Shown piece by piece: positions 9,957 to 15,969 of a stretch of DNA of 30,349 nt (position 1 is its first letter; each line of letters starts with the position of its first letter). This DNA comes from an uncultured Bacilli bacterium (GTDB lineage: Bacteria; Bacillota_I; Bacilli_A; RF39; UBA660). Location: assembly GCA_947625315.1 (NCBI GenBank), contig CANQOE010000001.1:1-30349 (forward strand), written 5' to 3'. Position numbers and translations under genes: made by a program. Below the pieces are notes generated by a model. It searched no databases, had not been told where the DNA came from, and worked only from the letters and a program-made list of their open reading frames with translations.

Positions 9957-10658
9957 ATGAAAGTAGTAAAAAAAATAATTATAAGTTTAATTGTTGTTTT
10001 AGGGGTTATAGCTTTTATTTTAGGAAGTTATATAATTTATAAAAATAAAAAAGTTTATGAAGCTCAAGATTTTAAAATTACGCCTATTATAAGTGAGGCA
10101 GATGCTAATAACAATGGCATAGATGATTATACGGAAATAATGCTTGGTGCAAGAGAAGATGCCATAAATCACCCTAAATATGATGGTTCTTATTATAATG
10201 GTGGATATCCCCCTGATGATATTGGAGTCTGTACCGATGTTGTATGGCGAGCTTTTAAAAAAGCGGGTTATGATTTAAAGAAAATGGTTGATGAAGATAT
10301 AGCTAAAAATAATGATACAGTATATAAGTTAGCTAAAATAGATCCTAATATCGATTTTCGCAGAGTAAGAAATTTATATTATTTTTTTGAACGCAATAGC
10401 GAAGTTTTAACAACAGATATAACAAAAATAGAAGAATGGCAACCAGGAGATATTGTTATCTTTGGAGAAAATCATAATCATATAGGTATTATTAGTGATA
10501 AACGCAATAGTAAAGGGATTCCTTATTTAATTCATAATAATAATCAACCTTTTAGAGAAGAAGATGTTTTAGAACGTTATAGCAAAAAGTTTATCGCTGG
10601 TCATTATCGTTTTAATACTAAATATGCGCAAAATTTAGAATATTTTAAGGAGGATTAG
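9957..10658 (+). CDS. DUF1287 (YijF-like) membrane-anchored protein
   Basis: GVCTDVVWRA, IDFRRVRNL, WQPGDIV, HIGI; N-terminal TM anchor. Confidence 0.8.
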   Translation: MKVVKKIIISLIVVLGVIAFILGSYIIYKNKKVYEAQDFKITPIISEADANNNGIDDYTEIMLGAREDAINHPKYDGSYYNGGYPPDDIGVCTDVVWRAFKKAGYDLKKMVDEDIAKNNDTVYKLAKIDPNIDFRRVRNLYYFFERNSEVLTTDITKIEEWQPGDIVIFGENHNHIGIISDKRNSKGIPYLIHNNNQPFREEDVLERYSKKFIAGHYRFNTKYAQNLEYFKED

Positions 10659-10660
10659 GA

Positions 10661-11143
10661 ATGGACGTCGATTTAAATAAGTTATATAATCAACCATTAG
10701 CTGTTGATACCGATATTAATTTTGATAGAAATATTTATCAAAATAAAGAAATTGTCGAATTAAAAAATATGCATGTTAAAGGTTTAATTAAAATAGATAG
10801 TATTGAGCAAGTAAATATTGATTTAAAGTTAACGGGAGAAATGATTTTAAAAGATAGTGTAACTTTAGAAGATGTAAGTAAAGATATTAATATTAATATT
10901 ACGGAACAATATGATATAAATGAAGGAGATTTTCAAGAATATTGGAAAAAAGAACAAAATATACTTGATATTATGAAGATTTTGTGGGAGAATATTGTAT
11001 TGGAAGTTCCAATTAGTTACACCAAAACTAAAAATGTTAGTTTAAGTGGTGATGGTTGGCAATTTACAGATGAAGAAAAAAATGAAGAATGTGATCCGAG
11101 ATTAGCGAAATTAACGCAAATTTTTGATCAGGGAAAGGAGTGA
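10661..11143 (+). CDS. DUF177/YceD family protein
   Basis: ENIVLEVP and DPRLAKL motifs; conserved position upstream of rpmF. Confidence 0.85.
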
Positions 11144-11147
11144 AACT

Positions 11148-11333
11148 ATGGCAGTTCCTTTTAGAAGAACAAGCAAAACAAAAAAAAGAATGCGTCGTAC
11201 GCACTTAAAGAAAGAAGCACCTTCTATAACTACATGTCCAAAATGTGGAGCAGCTTTAAAACCTCATAGAGCATGTACTAAATGTGGCTATTATAAAGAT
11301 AGTGAAGTTATTAAAGTTGAAAATGAAGAATAG
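11148..11333 (+). CDS. rpmF: 50S ribosomal protein L32
   Basis: [23 protein letters not shown]...CTKC; GAAAGGAG SD supports ATG 11148 rather than 11124. Confidence 0.97.
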
Positions 11334-11355
11334 TTAGATTAATCTAGCTTTTTTT
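11332..11355 (+). terminator. Terminator after rpmF
   Basis: AGTTAGA...TCTAGCT hairpin followed by a T-run. Confidence 0.6.
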
Positions 11356-11367
11356 AATAATATTATC

Positions 11368-11396
11368 TTGATTAAATAGATAATTTATGGTATATT
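11368..11396 (+). promoter_or_regulatory. sigma-A promoter of sRNA A
   Basis: TTGATT-17 nt-TATATT with TG extension; conserved in unit C. Confidence 0.75.
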
Positions 11397-11400
11397 AAAT

Positions 11401-11514
11401 ATGTCAGAGAAATCTGCATAAAATAAAAAAGGATACATTTGAATGTGGAATCAAATGCTTCCCATAATAAGAGGTAGCATCTGAAATCAACAAAGGTTGA
11501 AATCAGATGCTTTT
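11401..11514 (+). ncRNA. Putative antitoxin sRNA A (~112 nt), antisense to the 3' part of the microprotein A mRNA
   Basis: Own promoter; CAGA-GAAA-TCTG hairpin; CATTTGA/TCAAATG stem; terminator AGCATCTGA...TCAGATGCT-TTT; no ORF. Confidence 0.7.
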
Positions 11515-11515
11515 A

Positions 11516-11593
11516 TTATTTATATAGTAAGGTGATTACTATGAAAAATAATAAGAAAATTATAATAAATAGAGATTGTTCTCTTTTTGTCAT
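11516..11593 (-). CDS. 25-aa hydrophobic microprotein MTKREQSLFIIIFLLFFIVITLLYK (putative type I toxin)
   Basis: GAAAGGCGGTGA SD; single TM-like stretch; paralogous to 12090..12167; own promoter. Confidence 0.8.
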   Translation of the reverse strand: MTKREQSLFIIIFLLFFIVITLLYK

Positions 11594-11656
11594 AATATCA
11601 CCGCCTTTCATAAAAGAAAGGGGAAGCATCTGATATTTTCAAATGTATCTATATAC

Positions 11657-11685
11657 ATTATACTAAACTTTTAGCTTATATGCAA
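11657..11685 (-). promoter_or_regulatory. sigma-A promoter of microprotein A
   Basis: TTGCAT-17 nt-TATAAT-GTATA; same architecture in all three units. Confidence 0.8.
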
Positions 11686-11755
11686 GGAAATAATTAATTT
11701 AAAATAAAATACTTGTCAAAAAATTTGGAGAGCACTAAATCTTTGTAAACTGTAT

Positions 11756-11806
11756 TCATAAAAATAGACAGATAGGAAATAAGATTAACAAATCCTTTTT
11801 CTTCAT
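11756..11806 (-). CDS. 16-aa microprotein MKKKDLLILFPICLFL (degenerate or truncated paralog; 23 codons to TAG at 11735 if the TGA is a nonsense mutation)
   Basis: GAAAGGGGG SD, GATATT-ATG context as in unit A, paralogous promoter. Confidence 0.5.
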   Translation of the reverse strand: MKKKDLLILFPICLFL

Positions 11807-11869
11807 AATATCAAGCCCCCTTTCTAAAATGAAAGTTGGCAAGCACTCATATTGTTAAACTTCCTATAC

Positions 11870-11898
11870 ATTATAGTAAACTTTTTAATTGAATGCAA
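11870..11898 (-). promoter_or_regulatory. sigma-A promoter of microprotein B
   Basis: TTGCAT-17 nt-TATAAT-GTATA; spacer contains AAAAGTTTA as in units A and C. Confidence 0.7.
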
Positions 11899-11943
11899 GA
11901 ATAAATAAATGAATTAATCTAGTTTTTTTATGATGTTTTTATC

Positions 11944-11972
11944 TTGCAAAAAATGATAATTTATGATATATT
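11944..11972 (+). promoter_or_regulatory. sigma-A promoter of sRNA C
   Basis: TTGCAA-17 nt-TATATT with TG extension. Confidence 0.75.
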
Positions 11973-11976
11973 AAAT

Positions 11977-12088
11977 ATGTCAGAGAAATCTGCATAAAAT
12001 AAAAAAGGATACATTTGAATGAGCAATCAAATGCTTTCCCAGTTTGGTAAGCATCTGAAATCAACAAAAGTTGAAATCAGATGCTTTT
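11977..12088 (+). ncRNA. Putative antitoxin sRNA C (~112 nt)
   Basis: Same three-hairpin layout as sRNA A; terminator AAGCATCTGA...TCAGATGCTT-TT. Confidence 0.7.
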
Positions 12089-12089
12089 G

Positions 12090-12167
12090 CTATTTTAGAA
12101 GTAAAACGATTACAACTAAGAATAGGAGTAATATTATAATAAATTGAGAAAATTCTCTTTTTGTCAT
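12090..12167 (-). CDS. 25-aa hydrophobic microprotein MTKREFSQFIIILLLFLVVIVLLLK (putative type I toxin)
   Basis: GAAAGGTGGTGG SD before ATG 12167; paralog of 11516..11593. Confidence 0.8.
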   Translation of the reverse strand: MTKREFSQFIIILLLFLVVIVLLLK

Positions 12168-12243
12168 AAATACCACCACCTTTCTTTTATCTTTTGACAA
12201 TTGAAAGGGAAAGCATCTGATATTTTCAAATGTATCTATATAC

Positions 12244-12272
12244 ATTATACTAAACTTTTGACTTATATGCAA
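12244..12272 (-). promoter_or_regulatory. sigma-A promoter of microprotein C
   Basis: TTGCAT-17 nt-TATAAT-GTATA. Confidence 0.8.
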
Positions 12273-12291
12273 GAATAAAGAGGATTATAAA

Positions 12292-12342: not shown

Positions 12343-15096
12343 TTGATGCTTATAAGTTTATTAAAAAAGTTTTTTAAGAGAAATAATAGTTATCAGGGTT
12401 TAGTAACATTTAATCAAAATATTGAAATACCTAAAAGAGAAGATATAACTGACAATAACGAATTAATTTTAATTGAAAAATATAAACAAGACTATAAAAA
12501 TAGATTATCTAAACTTAAGTATTTAACAAGTTTAGATATTAATTCTAAAACTTTAAAGAAAAATATAGAAATGAATATTGAATTATTGTTAAATATTTTT
12601 ATTGATGAAGAGGAAATTAAAAAGATTACATTAGAAGATAAAGTAAATTATTTAGTAAATATTCGAAAGTTAGACTTATACTCATTAACTATTTTAGATT
12701 TAGAAAAAGAAGTAATTACTAGACTAATAGCTTTAAAAGAAATTTATCAAGAGAGAAAAACATATATGATATGGTTTAAAAAAGAGGCAATGGCTAATGA
12801 AATAAATAATTTAACTTTTGCTTTAACAATAATTGGGAATAATAAGTTAGCTATAGAACTAGAAAAGAAAAGATATTTAACTCAAGCTATATATATGGTA
12901 AAAGAAGAAGAAAATGCCAATTTAGAACAAGCAATAAACAAAAAAAGAAGATTTTTACAAAATATTATTAATTATTTAATGACAGATGAAAATATAATTA
13001 TAAGAGAAGACGAAAAACATATTTTAATAGATATGGCAGATGTCGAAAGAAGACTAGAAATATATGCTTATCAACATAAAGGCAATGTTGATAAATTAAA
13101 AGAAGATTTAAAGCTTCTATGGGAAGGAACAATTGATTATTCTAATAAAGAAAATCTTTTAAAGATTATTAAAGATTTAGAAATAAAATATTTGGTGTTT
13201 TATAAATATGGCAAAAAAAATATTGTTTTAGAAGATTTAAAAACATTATATTTAATCAAATTTAATATATTAGTTTTGAGTAATAATGGAATTAGAAAAA
13301 CAATTGTAGATGAAAATACTAACGATATAGAATTAGAGTGTTATAGTAATATAATAATGCGCGAAATTGAAGACTTACTTAAAGGAGAGGGAGAACTTAA
13401 TAGTGAAGAAGCTATAAAAATCATCCTAAATATTCTAAAAAGAAATAAAGATAAAATAATTGCTGAAGATATTTTAACTAATAAATATTTATTTAATATA
13501 TGTTTGGCCATGAAAAGTAAAACAGAATTAATAAATATGTTAAAAAATTTTAAAGTAAAGAGAAAATATTATCAACCACCTAATTTTGGAGATAAATTAT
13601 CATTAATTTGGGAAGATGAATTATCACTCGAAACAATTTATCGAATAGAGTTAGCTTTAAATAATGGTAATGATGTAAAACTATATGAGATATTAAAAGA
13701 TGATATTTATCCTGATGAAGAATATTATTATTTACCTGAAGGTTTAAAAGAAATAAATTATTATCCAGATTTTGTGCCAAAATCTAAAATTGCTTTTTAT
13801 TTTGGTGAAGAGAATGTGATTAAAAAAATTGAAAAGCTAGCAAATAATAAAACCGTAGTATTTCCTAATTCTTTTGTAAAAATAAAAGGTAGTGCCAAAC
13901 TTTTTGTCAAAATTAAAAGCTTGGAAATAAGCAAAAATATTATATTCGATGAACTTAAAGATTTTAAAATATTAGAAAGGACAAAAAACAAAATTGTTTG
14001 TCATTTAAGAAGCACTAATGAAATAATTACTTGCGATAGAGAGGCATTTATTAAAAATAAATGGGGTAATGATGTTGCTTTAGGTCTTTTAAAATTTAAT
14101 CCAGATAAAAATTTATATATAGAACAATATATGAAAAAAACAGATGATAATGAATCGAAAACAAAACTTTTAGAGATAAGTTATGCTGATGTTTCAACTA
14201 AATATGGCGATTTTTGTTTGCATATAGAAAAAAATTATTATGGAAAAAGTTATAAAAGTCCTTATTTAACTTTATCTTTATGTTATGGTCATCATAATGA
14301 AGAAATCTATAAATTAGCAAATAATATTGATTATTCAGATTTTTGCTTATTTCAAACTAGAATAGTACCTTTTGCAGATTGTGAAAGATGGGATTTTGGT
14401 TCTTTTAAAAAACGCTGGTTTAGAGAATTTAGAAGTATCCTTAATCGTGATAGCATTTATAATAATGCAAAATATATAAGTTCGGCACTTTATACTTTCG
14501 AATCAAATGGTAATTATGGAGTAATTTTTATGAATGCAAAAATGAAATTACCTGAAAAATATATATTAACAGCATTATTATTACTTGAGGAATATGCTTA
14601 TGAATATGAAAAAGAAGATTGGGATTCTAAAGCTTATATTGGGAATGGTAATGAGATGCTATTTTTATTAAAAAAAGACAAAAATGTAAGAGTTATTCAT
14701 AAAGAATATATAGATGGAGTTTGGACAAAAAAAGAGTTTGAACCTATTTATGGAGAAAATCTAAAATTTACGAGAAAAGATTTTGAACAAATATTGGTTA
14801 ATATTGAAAATTATTCTTTAAGTGATGATTTAAAAAAGTATGTAATTGATGAATTAAATACATTCTTAAACTTACATAATGAAAATCTTACGGAAATTAA
14901 AAGCATTTTAAAAGGATATGAATATAATGATTTGCTTAATAAATATTTTAAAGGTAATATTGCTTTAAATGTGGAGAGGTTGATAGAAGATATTATGAAT
15001 AATTTTCATATTAGTATAGAAGAGTTAATAGGTAGTAAAGAAAAATTGGAGCAACTAAATAGCTTGCAATTGACGAGAAAGTTGAAAAAAGATTAA
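12343..15096 (+). CDS. Large hypothetical protein (helical N-terminus, possible degenerate BspA-type LRRs, unknown C-terminal domain)
   Basis: 917-aa open frame with SD and promoter; LPEGLKEI and VVFPNSFVKI resemble LRR_5 units. Confidence 0.8.
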   Translation: MMLISLLKKFFKRNNSYQGLVTFNQNIEIPKREDITDNNELILIEKYKQDYKNRLSKLKYLTSLDINSKTLKKNIEMNIELLLNIFIDEEEIKKITLEDKVNYLVNIRKLDLYSLTILDLEKEVITRLIALKEIYQERKTYMIWFKKEAMANEINNLTFALTIIGNNKLAIELEKKRYLTQAIYMVKEEENANLEQAINKKRRFLQNIINYLMTDENIIIREDEKHILIDMADVERRLEIYAYQHKGNVDKLKEDLKLLWEGTIDYSNKENLLKIIKDLEIKYLVFYKYGKKNIVLEDLKTLYLIKFNILVLSNNGIRKTIVDENTNDIELECYSNIIMREIEDLLKGEGELNSEEAIKIILNILKRNKDKIIAEDILTNKYLFNICLAMKSKTELINMLKNFKVKRKYYQPPNFGDKLSLIWEDELSLETIYRIELALNNGNDVKLYEILKDDIYPDEEYYYLPEGLKEINYYPDFVPKSKIAFYFGEENVIKKIEKLANNKTVVFPNSFVKIKGSAKLFVKIKSLEISKNIIFDELKDFKILERTKNKIVCHLRSTNEIITCDREAFIKNKWGNDVALGLLKFNPDKNLYIEQYMKKTDDNESKTKLLEISYADVSTKYGDFCLHIEKNYYGKSYKSPYLTLSLCYGHHNEEIYKLANNIDYSDFCLFQTRIVPFADCERWDFGSFKKRWFREFRSILNRDSIYNNAKYISSALYTFESNGNYGVIFMNAKMKLPEKYILTALLLLEEYAYEYEKEDWDSKAYIGNGNEMLFLLKKDKNVRVIHKEYIDGVWTKKEFEPIYGENLKFTRKDFEQILVNIENYSLSDDLKKYVIDELNTFLNLHNENLTEIKSILKGYEYNDLLNKYFKGNIALNVERLIEDIMNNFHISIEELIGSKEKLEQLNSLQLTRKLKKD

Positions 15097-15184: not shown

Positions 15185-15436
15185 ATGGCAAAAAATGCGG
15201 AAGCAAAAAAAGAAAAAAAAGTTAAACAAACTAAAAATCTTAAAAAGAAAGAGAAAAAAACGAAAGTAAAAAAAGAAAGTTATATCGCCGGAGTTAAAAG
15301 TGAAATAAGTAAAGTTAAATGGCCTTCTAAACAAGAGGTTTTAAAATATACAATAGCTACAATAGTATTTATGGTAGTTTTAGCAGTATTCTTTGAACTA
15401 CTAACCTTAATTATGGCTATGCTAGGTGGTGCTTAA
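15185..15436 (+). CDS. secE: Preprotein translocase subunit SecE
   Basis: EISKVKWPSKQE motif plus one TM; AAAGGAG SD supports ATG 15185; upstream of nusG. Confidence 0.93.
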   Translation: MAKNAEAKKEKKVKQTKNLKKKEKKTKVKKESYIAGVKSEISKVKWPSKQEVLKYTIATIVFMVVLAVFFELLTLIMAMLGGA

Positions 15437-15969
15437 TGGAAAAAGAATGGTATGTTGTTAGTACTTATTCGGGACATGAAGCTAAAGTTAAAGAAAAACT
15501 AGAAGCTAAAGTTGAATCAATGGGTTTACAAGATTCAATATTTAGAATAATTATTCCCGAAACAACAGAAGTAGAAATTAAAGATGGCGTCAAAAAAGAA
15601 AAAACTAAAAAAATGTTTCCTAGCTATGTTTTAGTAGAAATGATTATGAATGATGAAGTATGGTATATTGTGCGTAATACCCCGGGAGTTACTGGTTTTA
15701 TTGGTTCTTCAGGTAAGGGTGCGAAACCAACTCCTTTACTTCCTCAAGAAATTGATAAAATACTTGCTAATATGGGTATGAGTAGAGTTAATATAGAATC
15801 AGAAATGGCTGTTGGTGATAAAGTTAATATTGTTGATGGTCCATTTAAAGGTATGATGGGTAAAATTGATAATATCGATTTAGAAAATAATCGCTTAAAT
15901 GTTTTAATTGATTTATTTGGTCAAGAAACTCCTGTAGAAGTAGAAGTTTATCAAGTTAGTAAAGCTTAA
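15436..15969 (+). CDS. nusG: Transcription termination/antitermination factor NusG
   Basis: WYVVSTYSGHE, FPSYVLVEM, VRNTPGVTGF, KOW domain GDKVNIVDGPF, LFGQETPVE. Confidence 0.97.
   Translation: MEKEWYVVSTYSGHEAKVKEKLEAKVESMGLQDSIFRIIIPETTEVEIKDGVKKEKTKKMFPSYVLVEMIMNDEVWYIVRNTPGVTGFIGSSGKGAKPTPLLPQEIDKILANMGMSRVNIESEMAVGDKVNIVDGPFKGMMGKIDNIDLENNRLNVLIDLFGQETPVEVEVYQVSKA

Follow-up and report, generated by a model that had tools for sequence, protein, structure and literature searches.

We consider it probable that units A and C, two minus-strand units of the window (the whole 30,349-nt stretch of DNA analysed here), are paralogous type I toxin–antitoxin-like modules of an undescribed family that work as set out below, and that a third unit, B, is what decay has left of a module from a sister class. 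The array is a local sample of a multi-class superfamily that extends through one bacterial family. As far as sequence can tell, units A and C carry the marks of type I toxin–antitoxin loci, namely a small hydrophobic coding ORF, a putative cis-antisense sRNA gene and a ribosome-binding site that is predicted to be hidden. The sequence-only reading of this DNA had proposed either a new type I toxin–antitoxin family or a family of sRNA-controlled membrane microproteins, and the analysis supports that interpretation at the sequence level because every expectation that could be tested there was borne out. The features of the three units are as follows.

11657..11685, minus strand: toxin-mRNA promoter of unit A (TTGCAT, 17 nt, TATAAT), by direct reading
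11420..11650, minus strand: predicted toxin mRNA of unit A, ~230 nt, its ends inferred from promoter and terminator (from ~7 nt past the −10 box through the U-tract)
11621..11649, minus strand: 5′ arm of the unit A clamp, in two halves, GAUACAUUUGAA and AUCAGAUGCUUCCC (inverted repeats I2 and I12; MFE structure; covariation over 45 units)
11598..11623, minus strand: anti-SD (CCCCUUUC) / SD (GAAAGGCGGUGA) hairpin of unit A, from folding
11516..11593, minus strand: micro-ORF of unit A, class I, 25 aa, MTKREQSLFIIIFLLFFIVITLLYK, from ORF reading and coding signal
11476..11512, unstranded: hairpin H1, directly 3′ of the unit A stop codon (inverted repeat I9; compensatory changes in 9 of 10 pairs); its plus-strand form is the unit A sRNA terminator, with a T-run to ~11523
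11464..11475, unstranded: unit A linker between H1 and the clamp, single-stranded, P(unpaired) 0.6–0.9
11420..11463, minus strand: 3′ arm of the unit A clamp, by direct reading and fold; locally it is hairpin H2 plus U-tract, the mRNA terminator
11368..11396, plus strand: sRNA promoter of unit A (TTGATT, 17 nt, TG-extended TATATT)
11401..11522, plus strand: predicted antisense sRNA of unit A, ~120 nt (fold z −6.7; R1 match 11397–11528, 114.8 bits)
11700..11905, minus strand: unit B, putative class II relic, by alignment with the intact class II units of contigs C50 and C87
11870–11898, minus strand: promoter of unit B (TTGCAT-17 nt-TATAAT-GTATA)
11756–11806, minus strand: ORF of unit B, 16 codons, from ORF reading
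12244..12272, minus strand: toxin-mRNA promoter of unit C (TTGCAT-17 nt-TATAAT-GTATA), by direct reading
11996..12237, minus strand: predicted toxin mRNA of unit C, ~240 nt (MFE −83.9 kcal/mol; inverted repeats I4 and I10)
12090..12167, minus strand: micro-ORF of unit C, class I, 25 aa, MTKREFSQFIIILLLFLVVIVLLLK, from ORF reading
11944..11972, plus strand: sRNA promoter of unit C (TTGCAA, 17 nt, TG-extended TATATT)
11977..12098, plus strand: predicted antisense sRNA of unit C, ~120 nt (R1 match 11973–12102, 113.2 bits; inverted repeat I8)
12049–12086, plus strand: sRNA terminator hairpin of unit C, with a T-run to 12098

The window letters, read directly, hold the three minus-strand units as first listed, with the three TTGCAT-17-TATAAT-GTATA promoters and GAAAGG-type SDs in their places (7–8 nt upstream of the ATG in all three units) and three ORFs that translate to exactly the peptides originally quoted. 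The promoter geometry of unit A also lies 5′ of 47 homologous units. Units A and C each have, as claimed, a convergent non-coding gene with its own promoter and terminator, but several sizes had to be adjusted: the antisense RNA is predicted at ~120 nt instead of ~112 nt, its overlap with the mRNA at ~97 nt instead of ~90 nt (11424–11520 in unit A, about 12000–12098 in unit C), and the minus-strand RNA, put at ~225 nt, at ~230 nt in unit A or 240 nt in unit C. The T-run of the sRNA extends just to the stop codon, and H1 begins 4 nt past that codon. H1 has a T-run on the sRNA side only; the mRNA terminates at H2.

The predicted mRNA of unit A (RNAfold −78.1 kcal/mol, z = −12.6) closes on itself: the first ~30 nt and the last ~35 nt pair to form a clamp of ~25 bp, in two parts, that reaches the terminator U-tract; in unit C the corresponding clamp pairs 12207–12236 with 12008–12040. 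In the RNAalifold consensus of 45 full-length mRNAs the clamp has 22 pairs, 18 of them with compensatory changes, although this and the other covariation counts given here exceed the number of independent events, since copies are related within and between genomes. Clamp cells are paired in 93.6% of cases, against 35–46% with the partner slid. The mismatch cells hold 102 G-U against 23 A-C, an excess that argues for selection on the mRNA strand and not on a DNA inverted repeat. Every folded unit has an anti-SD/SD hairpin directly adjoining the clamp, and all states modelled in silico leave the SD largely paired. The mean P(unpaired) of the unit A SD is 0.32 in the closed mRNA and 0.11 with the sRNA site masked; in unit C the predicted pairing is equal with and without the sRNA. 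The linker is hypervariable among paralogues, with an identity of 0.51 as against 0.96 for the stems. The fold z-scores of mRNA (−12.6) and sRNA (−6.7), and the recurrence of the unit in this genome and in related ones, exceed what chance would give.

The unit A sRNA consists, in order, of a 5′ hairpin, an A-rich tract, hairpin H2′, a linker and the terminator H1′; the unit C antisense gene likewise has a 5′ hairpin. About 97 nt of it are fully complementary to the 3′ end of the mRNA, taking in the clamp strand, the linker and H1. Both RNAs hold complementary single-stranded sites, which are the predicted contact sites, and a 6-nt internal loop (UCCACA) in the clamp 3′ arm of unit A is complementary to the sRNA loop. 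In sense the 5′ leader of the mRNA agrees with the part of the sRNA that does the targeting, and the two are almost identical in sequence. Pairing of the sRNA over the SD or AUG, of the DRa/DRb kind, is absent; the leader holds only a ~10-nt terminator-arm match upstream of the SD. For sRNA A on mRNA C, the predicted cross-pairing remains very strong (−120 vs −164 kcal/mol).

The antisense module was modelled from 32 copies as the covariance model R1, which followed an nhmmer profile that had itself superseded a loose T-run motif scan (398 matches, mostly spurious). The R1 alignment is paired in 90.9% of its cells, compared with 25–37% once the partner is slid, and 17 of its 24 pairs are changed on both sides; none of 500 shuffles reached the observed values. 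The geometry of −35 box, 17-nt spacer and extended −10 box is kept in 28/28 sRNA promoters with variable spacers, and the −35 and −10 boxes of the toxin-mRNA promoters are likewise conserved around variable 17-nt spacers. The sRNA 5′ hairpin and promoter, which lie outside the mRNA, form the part most conserved across all three peptide classes.

The micro-ORFs are under protein-coding selection. We found 47 distinct intact ORFs, which fall into three peptide classes of 24–30 aa with one TM-like helix each; at least three peptide classes share one common RNA architecture. The pN/pS values of the classes are 0.29, 0.34 and 0.49, the lowest being that of class I, which also shows a third-position excess; summed over the classes, variable sites by codon position number 43, 25 and 61. 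Class I, to which units A and C belong, has 25 codons and reads MTKRE, a hydrophobic helix and Lys. The divergence between A and C does preserve the peptide, as had been noticed: 21 of the 78 ORF bases and 7 of the 25 residues differ, and every residue change either exchanges one hydrophobic residue for another or is a polar swap close to the N-terminus. The unit C ORF is identical to one on contig C55.

No known family could be assigned to the modules, in keeping with the original reading. A cmscan with all 4227 Rfam families (E up to 10) returned five noise matches and no antitoxin family, Pfam and NCBIfam scans of the peptides gave noise only, and the ESM Atlas yielded no usable match for them. 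A phmmer search with a 30-aa class III peptide against 1.84 billion representatives found 0 matches, and the lack of these peptides from predicted proteomes shows merely that such genes go uncalled.

A covariance-model search of related genomes, a check that the sequence-only reading had itself suggested, placed R1 matches in 97 of the 151 genomes sampled from this bacterial family, and in 56 of 86 genera. Within the genus 35 of 44 genomes have matches; this 1.08-Mb genome has about 10, and the maximum is 19 copies in a genome of about 1.2–1.3 Mb. Outside the family, 0/137 and 0/148 genomes matched (about 285 genome searches). The tandem amplification first proposed is too simple a picture of the array: unit C is nearer to a copy on another contig than to unit A, and unit B belongs to another class. 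At the YceD–rpmF loci of 20 related genomes no module was found within 3 kb, which means that the place next to rpmF was not the ancestral one. In this genome the coupling of toxin and sRNA genes is strict: all seven assessable intact toxin ORFs have an R1 match, and the sole toxin leader without an sRNA is that of unit B, whose ORF is truncated. Two sRNA genes stand without an intact ORF, on C70, where the ORF is broken, and on C5.

In the model that we favour, each intact module would produce an mRNA of ~230 nt encoding a 25-residue peptide with a basic N-terminus (MTKRE), one TM helix and Lys or Arg at the C-terminus. Other type I toxins suggest, by analogy, that such a peptide would damage the cell membrane if it were produced. 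The mRNA appears built to be both stable and silent, with the clamp closed and a very strong SD locked in the anti-SD hairpin that adjoins it, and the convergent promoter would supply an sRNA of ~120 nt against its last ~97 nt. Binding may begin where the loop and linker of the sRNA touch the internal loop and linker of the mRNA, which are predicted to be single-stranded in the closed mRNA. The spreading duplex would then push off the mRNA's own 5′ arm, after which RNase III would cut the long duplex, and RNase J, RNase Y and 3′ exonucleases would degrade the unclamped ends; genes for RNase III, RNase J and RNase Y are present. The freed leader would also tighten the SD hairpin, so that the sRNA would act in two ways, as SR4 does on bsrG. 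In bsrG/SR4, antisense binding at the 3′ end leads to RNase III cleavage and SD tightening (PMC3834814), and other B. subtilis systems likewise offer documented precedent (PMC6562991).

We put forward more tentatively, as a possibility that we would not yet favour, that the 5′ leader acts in cis as an antitoxin mimic that competes with the sRNA for the 3′ arm, so that the sRNA invades the clamp instead of masking the ribosome site. One sRNA chassis (promoter, 5′ hairpin and A-tract) might then carry exchangeable targeting modules for at least three classes, with the hypervariable loops and linker setting the paralogue, and up to 19 insulated modules might coexist in 1.2 Mb.

The structural and coding evidence would fit equally well a real gene pair whose peptide is no toxin, for instance a regulator or membrane-complex subunit tuned by a cis-antisense RNA, and many small bacterial membrane proteins are harmless. 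Several traits that are typical of type I toxin–antitoxin loci would be hard to account for with a housekeeping microprotein: a copy number that reaches 19 in a ~1.2-Mb genome, spread over three or more peptide classes; the tandem arrays, variable genomic positions and frequent decay; and the extreme silencing of a very strong SD. The relics are also asymmetric, in that orphan sRNA genes persist and no lone intact ORF is seen. We regard a non-toxin peptide as rather unlikely.

Two further readings would reduce the importance of the gene pair itself. The plus-strand RNA might act mainly in trans or by binding a protein, with its function in the 5′ hairpin and A-tract and its overlap with the mRNA secondary; the conservation of the 5′ hairpin and promoter outside the mRNA and the survival of sRNA genes without an intact ORF (C70, C5) point that way. 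Yet in each class covariation links the other ~97 nt to the cognate mRNA, the A-tract is simply complementary to the mRNA terminator U-tract, and RNAs are commonly protected from RNase J by a 5′ hairpin. We hold this reading to be very unlikely. We give still less credence, to the point of near dismissal, to a non-autonomous mobile element or repeat with terminal inverted repeats at the DNA level, in which ORF and "sRNA" would be incidental. An interrupted ~25-bp inverted repeat does bound the unit, which is multi-copy and occupies differing sites between genomes (0/20 relatives have it after rpmF). Against this, the arm sequences are wholly different between classes while their complementarity is kept, mismatches are G-U on the mRNA strand 4–5 times more often than A-C, the ORF is under in-frame purifying selection, and SD, ATG, anti-SD and two promoters are conserved; transposase and target-site duplication were not seen, though no systematic search was made for them. 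On the G-U/A-C asymmetry together with the coding signal we reject a MITE.

Among known systems, bsrG/SR4 and txpA/RatA of Bacillus come nearest in layout, while for the mRNA clamp the similar element is the upstream helix of par from Enterococcus. The 3′-to-3′ overlap of convergent mRNA and antisense RNA in units A and C is that of TxpA/RatA, BsrG/SR4 and SprG/SprF, as was first pointed out, and also that of BsrE/SR5 and YonT/SR6. The B. subtilis systems bsrG/SR4, txpA/RatA, bsrE/SR5 and yonT/SR6 share with units A and C convergent genes and a small hydrophobic peptide; their SD lies within a hairpin, tightened on SR4 binding, and RNase III cleaves their duplex (PMC3834814, PMC6562991). Unit A matches these systems in layout and in two predicted features, the loop-to-loop contact and the tightening of the SD, but there is no similarity in sequence or model. 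The peptides here are shorter (24–30 aa vs 29–59 aa) and, unlike the B. subtilis toxins, have their charged end at the N-terminus and just 1–2 basic residues at the C-terminus. The antisense RNA meets the ORF at the stop codon only, whereas in the B. subtilis/SprG type it overlaps the 3′ part of the ORF (PMC8594479), and its target, unlike theirs, is one strand of an intramolecular 5′–3′ clamp. In sprG/SprF of S. aureus the antisense RNA overlaps the 3′ end of the mRNA of a small membrane peptide (PMC8594479), which is the layout seen here; Rfam, Pfam and NCBIfam show no similarity to it, and a 5′–3′ clamp is not among the features that we found described.

The par locus of E. faecalis pAD1 (fst RNA I / RNA II; Fst/Ldr) also has convergent promoters, a junction hairpin common to both strands and a peptide with a charged N-terminus followed by a TM helix. 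Its 5′ stem-loop hides the SD, and its upstream helix encloses the very 5′ end of the toxin mRNA, which it makes more stable (PMC7472228). The helix here is analogous but much longer, with ~25 bp (22 consensus pairs, with covariation), and is made with the terminator arms. The Fst/Ldr signature (PMC7472228) is missing, both the conserved Trp that separates the TM helix from a charged C-terminal tail and the P/D/S/TxxxG motif, whose absence agrees with the original observation: 47/47 peptides have neither Trp nor Pro-xxx-Gly nor a charged tail. In place of a single bidirectional terminator, the mRNA continues past H1 and ends at a terminator of its own, H2. The sRNA has about 120 nt, compared with about 40–65 nt in par, and pairs over ~97 contiguous nt, whereas par uses the DRa/DRb repeats at the start codon. 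Locking of the 5′ to the 3′ end is a principle shared with hok/Sok and aapA1/IsoA1: the full-length aapA1 mRNA of H. pylori is stable and untranslatable through a long-distance 5′–3′ lock (PMC6733600), and fold-back inhibition of the hok mRNA of plasmid R1 is cited in PMC8594479. In those systems, however, which have Gram-negative hosts and no sequence similarity to our units, the antisense RNA pairs with the 5′ part and needs 3′ trimming of the mRNA before it acts. In our units the antisense gene lies at the 3′ end, and what its RNA complements is the clamp's own 3′ strand.

Across a family of uncultured gut Bacilli with reduced genomes, the modules make up an unannotated superfamily. For genomes as small as about 1.2 Mb, as many as 19 copies are a large investment, which suggests a real role; stabilising the genome or an island, defence against phage, or dormancy under stress may be considered. 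The predicted RNA design unites two principles that are usually separate, the 5′–3′ clamp of hok and aapA1 and the 3′-overlapping antisense RNA of Bacillus, and the natural covariation data provide a ready mutational map of it. The covariance model allows such loci to be annotated in gut metagenomes at once. The short modular RNA parts could serve as orthogonal regulators, a use to which other type I systems have already been put (PMC12721322).

The DNA of the window comes from a rabbit gut metagenome. Searches of RNA runs turned up no library with this locus. In X21, a polyA RNA-seq data set from gut and the one RNA library with related contigs, 151-nt contigs are 87–90% alike over ORF and leader, and one of them extends into the −10 box, so that DNA carry-over or read-through is possible; these contigs show no likeness over the sRNA 5′ module, though that module is very abundant.

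The third unit stands as only part of what had been claimed: A and C are full members, and B is best read as a truncated class II relic. It aligns with the class II promoter, leader and first ~12 codons and then diverges, retaining promoter, leader, SD and a 16-codon ORF and lacking H1, H2 and the sRNA (no R1 match). A code in which TGA is read as Trp, which would lengthen the unit B ORF, was rejected, because under table 11 all 29 long ORFs in the window stay open.

Judged on its comparative record, the array beside rpmF is built on a genuine and conserved pair of genes, one for a micro-ORF mRNA and one for a predicted antisense sRNA. Three minus-strand units occupy the 1 kb that separates rpmF from an orphan ORF of 917 codons, and every coordinate in the sequence-only reading was correct. 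Units A and C are intact; unit B has an ORF of 16 codons.

11149-11333: rpmF (L32), upstream edge of the gap
about 11338-11700, minus strand (peptide gene): unit A
about 11913-12278, minus strand (peptide gene): unit C
12343-15096: orphan ORF of 917 codons, downstream edge of the gap

Units A and C each start with a TTGCAT-17-TATAAT promoter and a leader of ~60-70 nt, followed by an extended ribosome-binding site (SD; GAAAGGCGGUGA or GAAAGGUGGUGG) 7 nt upstream of the ATG and an ORF of 25 codons. A near-perfect hairpin (H1) lies immediately 3' of the stop codon, and a short linker connects it to a second hairpin (H2) with a U-tract. On the plus strand of each unit, a promoter with a TG-extended -10 box precedes a small 5' hairpin, an A-rich tract, the complements of H2 and then H1, and a T-run. 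Because the T-run beside H1 is present on the plus strand only, H1 would terminate the plus-strand RNA, and the mRNA would read through H1 to H2. With ends placed from promoters and terminators, the predicted overlap of the two RNAs is ~97 nt, and the sRNA is nearer ~120 nt than the ~112 nt first proposed. Comparing the ORFs of A and C gives 21 changed bases out of 78 and just 7 changed residues out of 25, bearing out the earlier remark that the main features of the peptide are kept despite many nucleotide changes.

The comparison drew on 47 distinct intact units found in over 30 genomes, and their peptides form at least three classes.

class I: MTKRExS.FIIILLLF..., 25 aa
class II: M.KKD(L/F)LI..., 24-30 aa
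class III: MK(T/K)(K/R)TF.IK..., 30 aa

All classes have a basic N-terminus and one hydrophobic helix, and the C-terminus is usually basic. The pN/pS values of the three classes are 0.29, 0.34, and 0.49. Variable sites summed by codon position number 43, 25, and 61, as they should if the sequence is translated, which argues that the ORF is a gene. A six-frame profile search of this genome returned eight significant ORFs, and all seven that could be assessed adjoin a match to R1, our covariance model of the antisense module; the eighth (C111) is truncated where its contig stops. The reverse case, an sRNA module without an intact ORF, does occur (early stop on C70, no ORF on C5), and the sole leader without an sRNA is that of unit B, whose ORF is lost. 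A toxin paired with its antidote would leave just such an asymmetry, with orphan sRNA modules and no orphan intact ORF.

For unit A, the predicted mRNA has a folding energy of -78 kcal/mol (z -12.6), its first ~30 nt pairing in two blocks with both H2 arms at the 3' end; an anti-SD/SD hairpin lies immediately inside this clamp. The RNAalifold consensus of 45 full-length mRNAs is exactly this long-range 5'-3' helix, with compensatory double changes in 18 of its 22 pairs. Clamp cells are paired in 93.6% of cases, versus 35-46% with the partner slid, and none of 500 shuffles reached the observed covariation, although the copies are related and cell counts overstate independent events. Among the clamp pairs, G-U cells outnumber A-C cells (102 versus 23), and for 35 of 47 units the mRNA strand gives the more stable helix, which places selection on the mRNA and not on an inverted repeat in the DNA. 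The transcription start predicted from promoter position is exactly the first clamp nucleotide.

The antisense module is, by the same kind of comparison, a conserved, structured gene. Its alignment (n=32) shows three helices, with 90.9% of cells paired versus 25-37% when slid and both sides changing in 17 of 24 pairs, cell counts again overstating independent events among related copies. In 28/28 units the sRNA promoter has retained the -35 box, a spacing of 17 nt, and the extended -10 box while the spacer sequence varies, and promoters of the mRNAs show the same regularity. Across all three peptide classes, the best-conserved part comprises the sRNA promoter, the 5' hairpin (GUCAAGGAAACUUGC type), and the A-tract (window 11401-11440 and all R1 hits), which accounts for many short DNA matches to query positions 262-317. 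The 5' hairpin lies outside the mRNA, yet is among the best-conserved parts; a stability element, a protein site, and a recombination handle are candidate roles for it and the A-tract.

R1 has 9-11 strong copies in this 1.08-Mb genome and matches 35 of 44 genomes of the genus. Searching related genomes with a covariance model, as had been proposed, gave matches in 97 of 151 genomes of the family (56 of 86 genera), with up to 19 copies per genome, and in none of 137 and 148 genomes of other families in partially overlapping class and phylum samples. We take the carrier lineage to be GTDB's RF39; records of relatives appear under the names 'uncultured Bacilli bacterium', 'Mycoplasma sp. CAG:776', and 'Candidatus Caccenecus avistercoris', and the window DNA comes from a rabbit gut metagenome. 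A full-text literature search found no paper tying type I toxin-antitoxin systems to RF39 and nothing relevant for Mollicutes.

The layout matches that of the Bacillus and Staphylococcus families in T1TAdb (PMC8594479), with the 3'-to-3' overlap of the TxpA/RatA, BsrG/SR4, and SprG/SprF type that had been recognized. In burying its 5' end, the mRNA resembles par RNA I with its upstream helix (PMC7472228), and the clamp recalls the end-to-end lock of hok and aapA1 (PMC6733600). Here the sRNA does not cover the ORF, and what it targets is a strand of the clamp. The peptides lack the Fst signature (Trp, PxxxG, charged tail), whose APxxxG motif had been noted as missing before, and Rfam, Pfam, and NCBIfam models gave no match, in agreement with the earlier failure to assign a family. 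On these comparisons, membership in the 3'-overlap families, par, hok, or aapA1 fails.

The model of the closed mRNA leaves three stretches of the sRNA target unpaired (a 6-nt internal loop, a 12-nt linker, and the H1 loop), and the sRNA presents a complementary 8-nt loop. When this target is masked, the SD of unit A falls in mean unpaired probability from 0.32 to 0.11; the SD of unit C is buried with or without masking. The genome encodes RNases III, J, and Y. These features suggest an order of events in which loop and linker contact would be followed by sRNA invasion of the clamp, a ~97-bp duplex, and RNase III cleavage with loss of end protection, additional SD sequestration being a second effect. 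This course is documented for SR4 on bsrG, and for decay only in the case of RatA on txpA (PMC3834814, PMC6562991). Stems of class I paralogues are 96-97% identical and their loops and linker 42-64%, which fits recognition sites but also a simple lack of constraint. None of the computed models explains translation activation.

Inside the 3' region, the H1 5' arm resembles the H2 5' arm (AAGCAUCUGAU / GAAGCAUUUGAU; 11476-11486 and 11450-11463 versus 11621-11634), so that the leader could pair with either and shares ~10 nt of complementarity with the terminator arm of the sRNA. By eye, classes II and III show the same three-way relation with other sequences (L010, L031); it may guide co-transcriptional folding, letting H2 terminate before the clamp closes.

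The promoter, leader, SD, and first ~12 codons of unit B match those of another peptide class, of which contigs C50 and C87 in this genome carry intact copies. Past that point B diverges and stops after 16 codons; it has no H1, H2, or sRNA gene, and is a relic. Other decayed modules in this genome keep the sRNA gene with a class II-like ORF ending after 6 codons (C70:2389-2509), an sRNA module without ORF immediately past a gene end (C5:10191-10321), or a weak remnant of H1 and H2 only (C23:9454-9591). Elsewhere in the family, tandem arrays of two or three modules are frequent (G015:C2, G139:C14, G110:C52), and identical or near-identical peptides, such as MKKKDLLISFLILIIILLIVSLMILSIKK and MTKREFSQFIIILLLFLVVIILLLK (L081, L083, L112, L118, and others), recur across genera; together these suggest exchange between species or very strong constraint.

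One polyA RNA-seq gut metagenome library (X21) contains read-length contigs of relatives over leader, ORF, and H1 (window 11484-11639 and 12030-12224). The sRNA 5' module, which DNA runs show in greatest abundance, is covered by none of them. If real RNA, these contigs hint at mRNAs without the H2 end, but one extends into the -10 box and the library is ambiguous as a sign of expression.

Pfam gave no match to the 917-aa ORF at E 0.001. This ORF and the array lie between rpmF and nusG (15436-15969), pointing to a possible inserted island that the modules may help to keep. The first residues of L32 are MAVPFRR; an SD lies 8 nt ahead of this start, and the yceD-like gene has its stop codon at 11141-11143, so an L27-like (Prp-type) propeptide is absent in this genome. 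The ORF at 9957-10658, flanked by an RNase T-family exonuclease gene and the yceD-like gene, carries a DUF1287 domain (E 1e-51) and a weak CHAP-like match.
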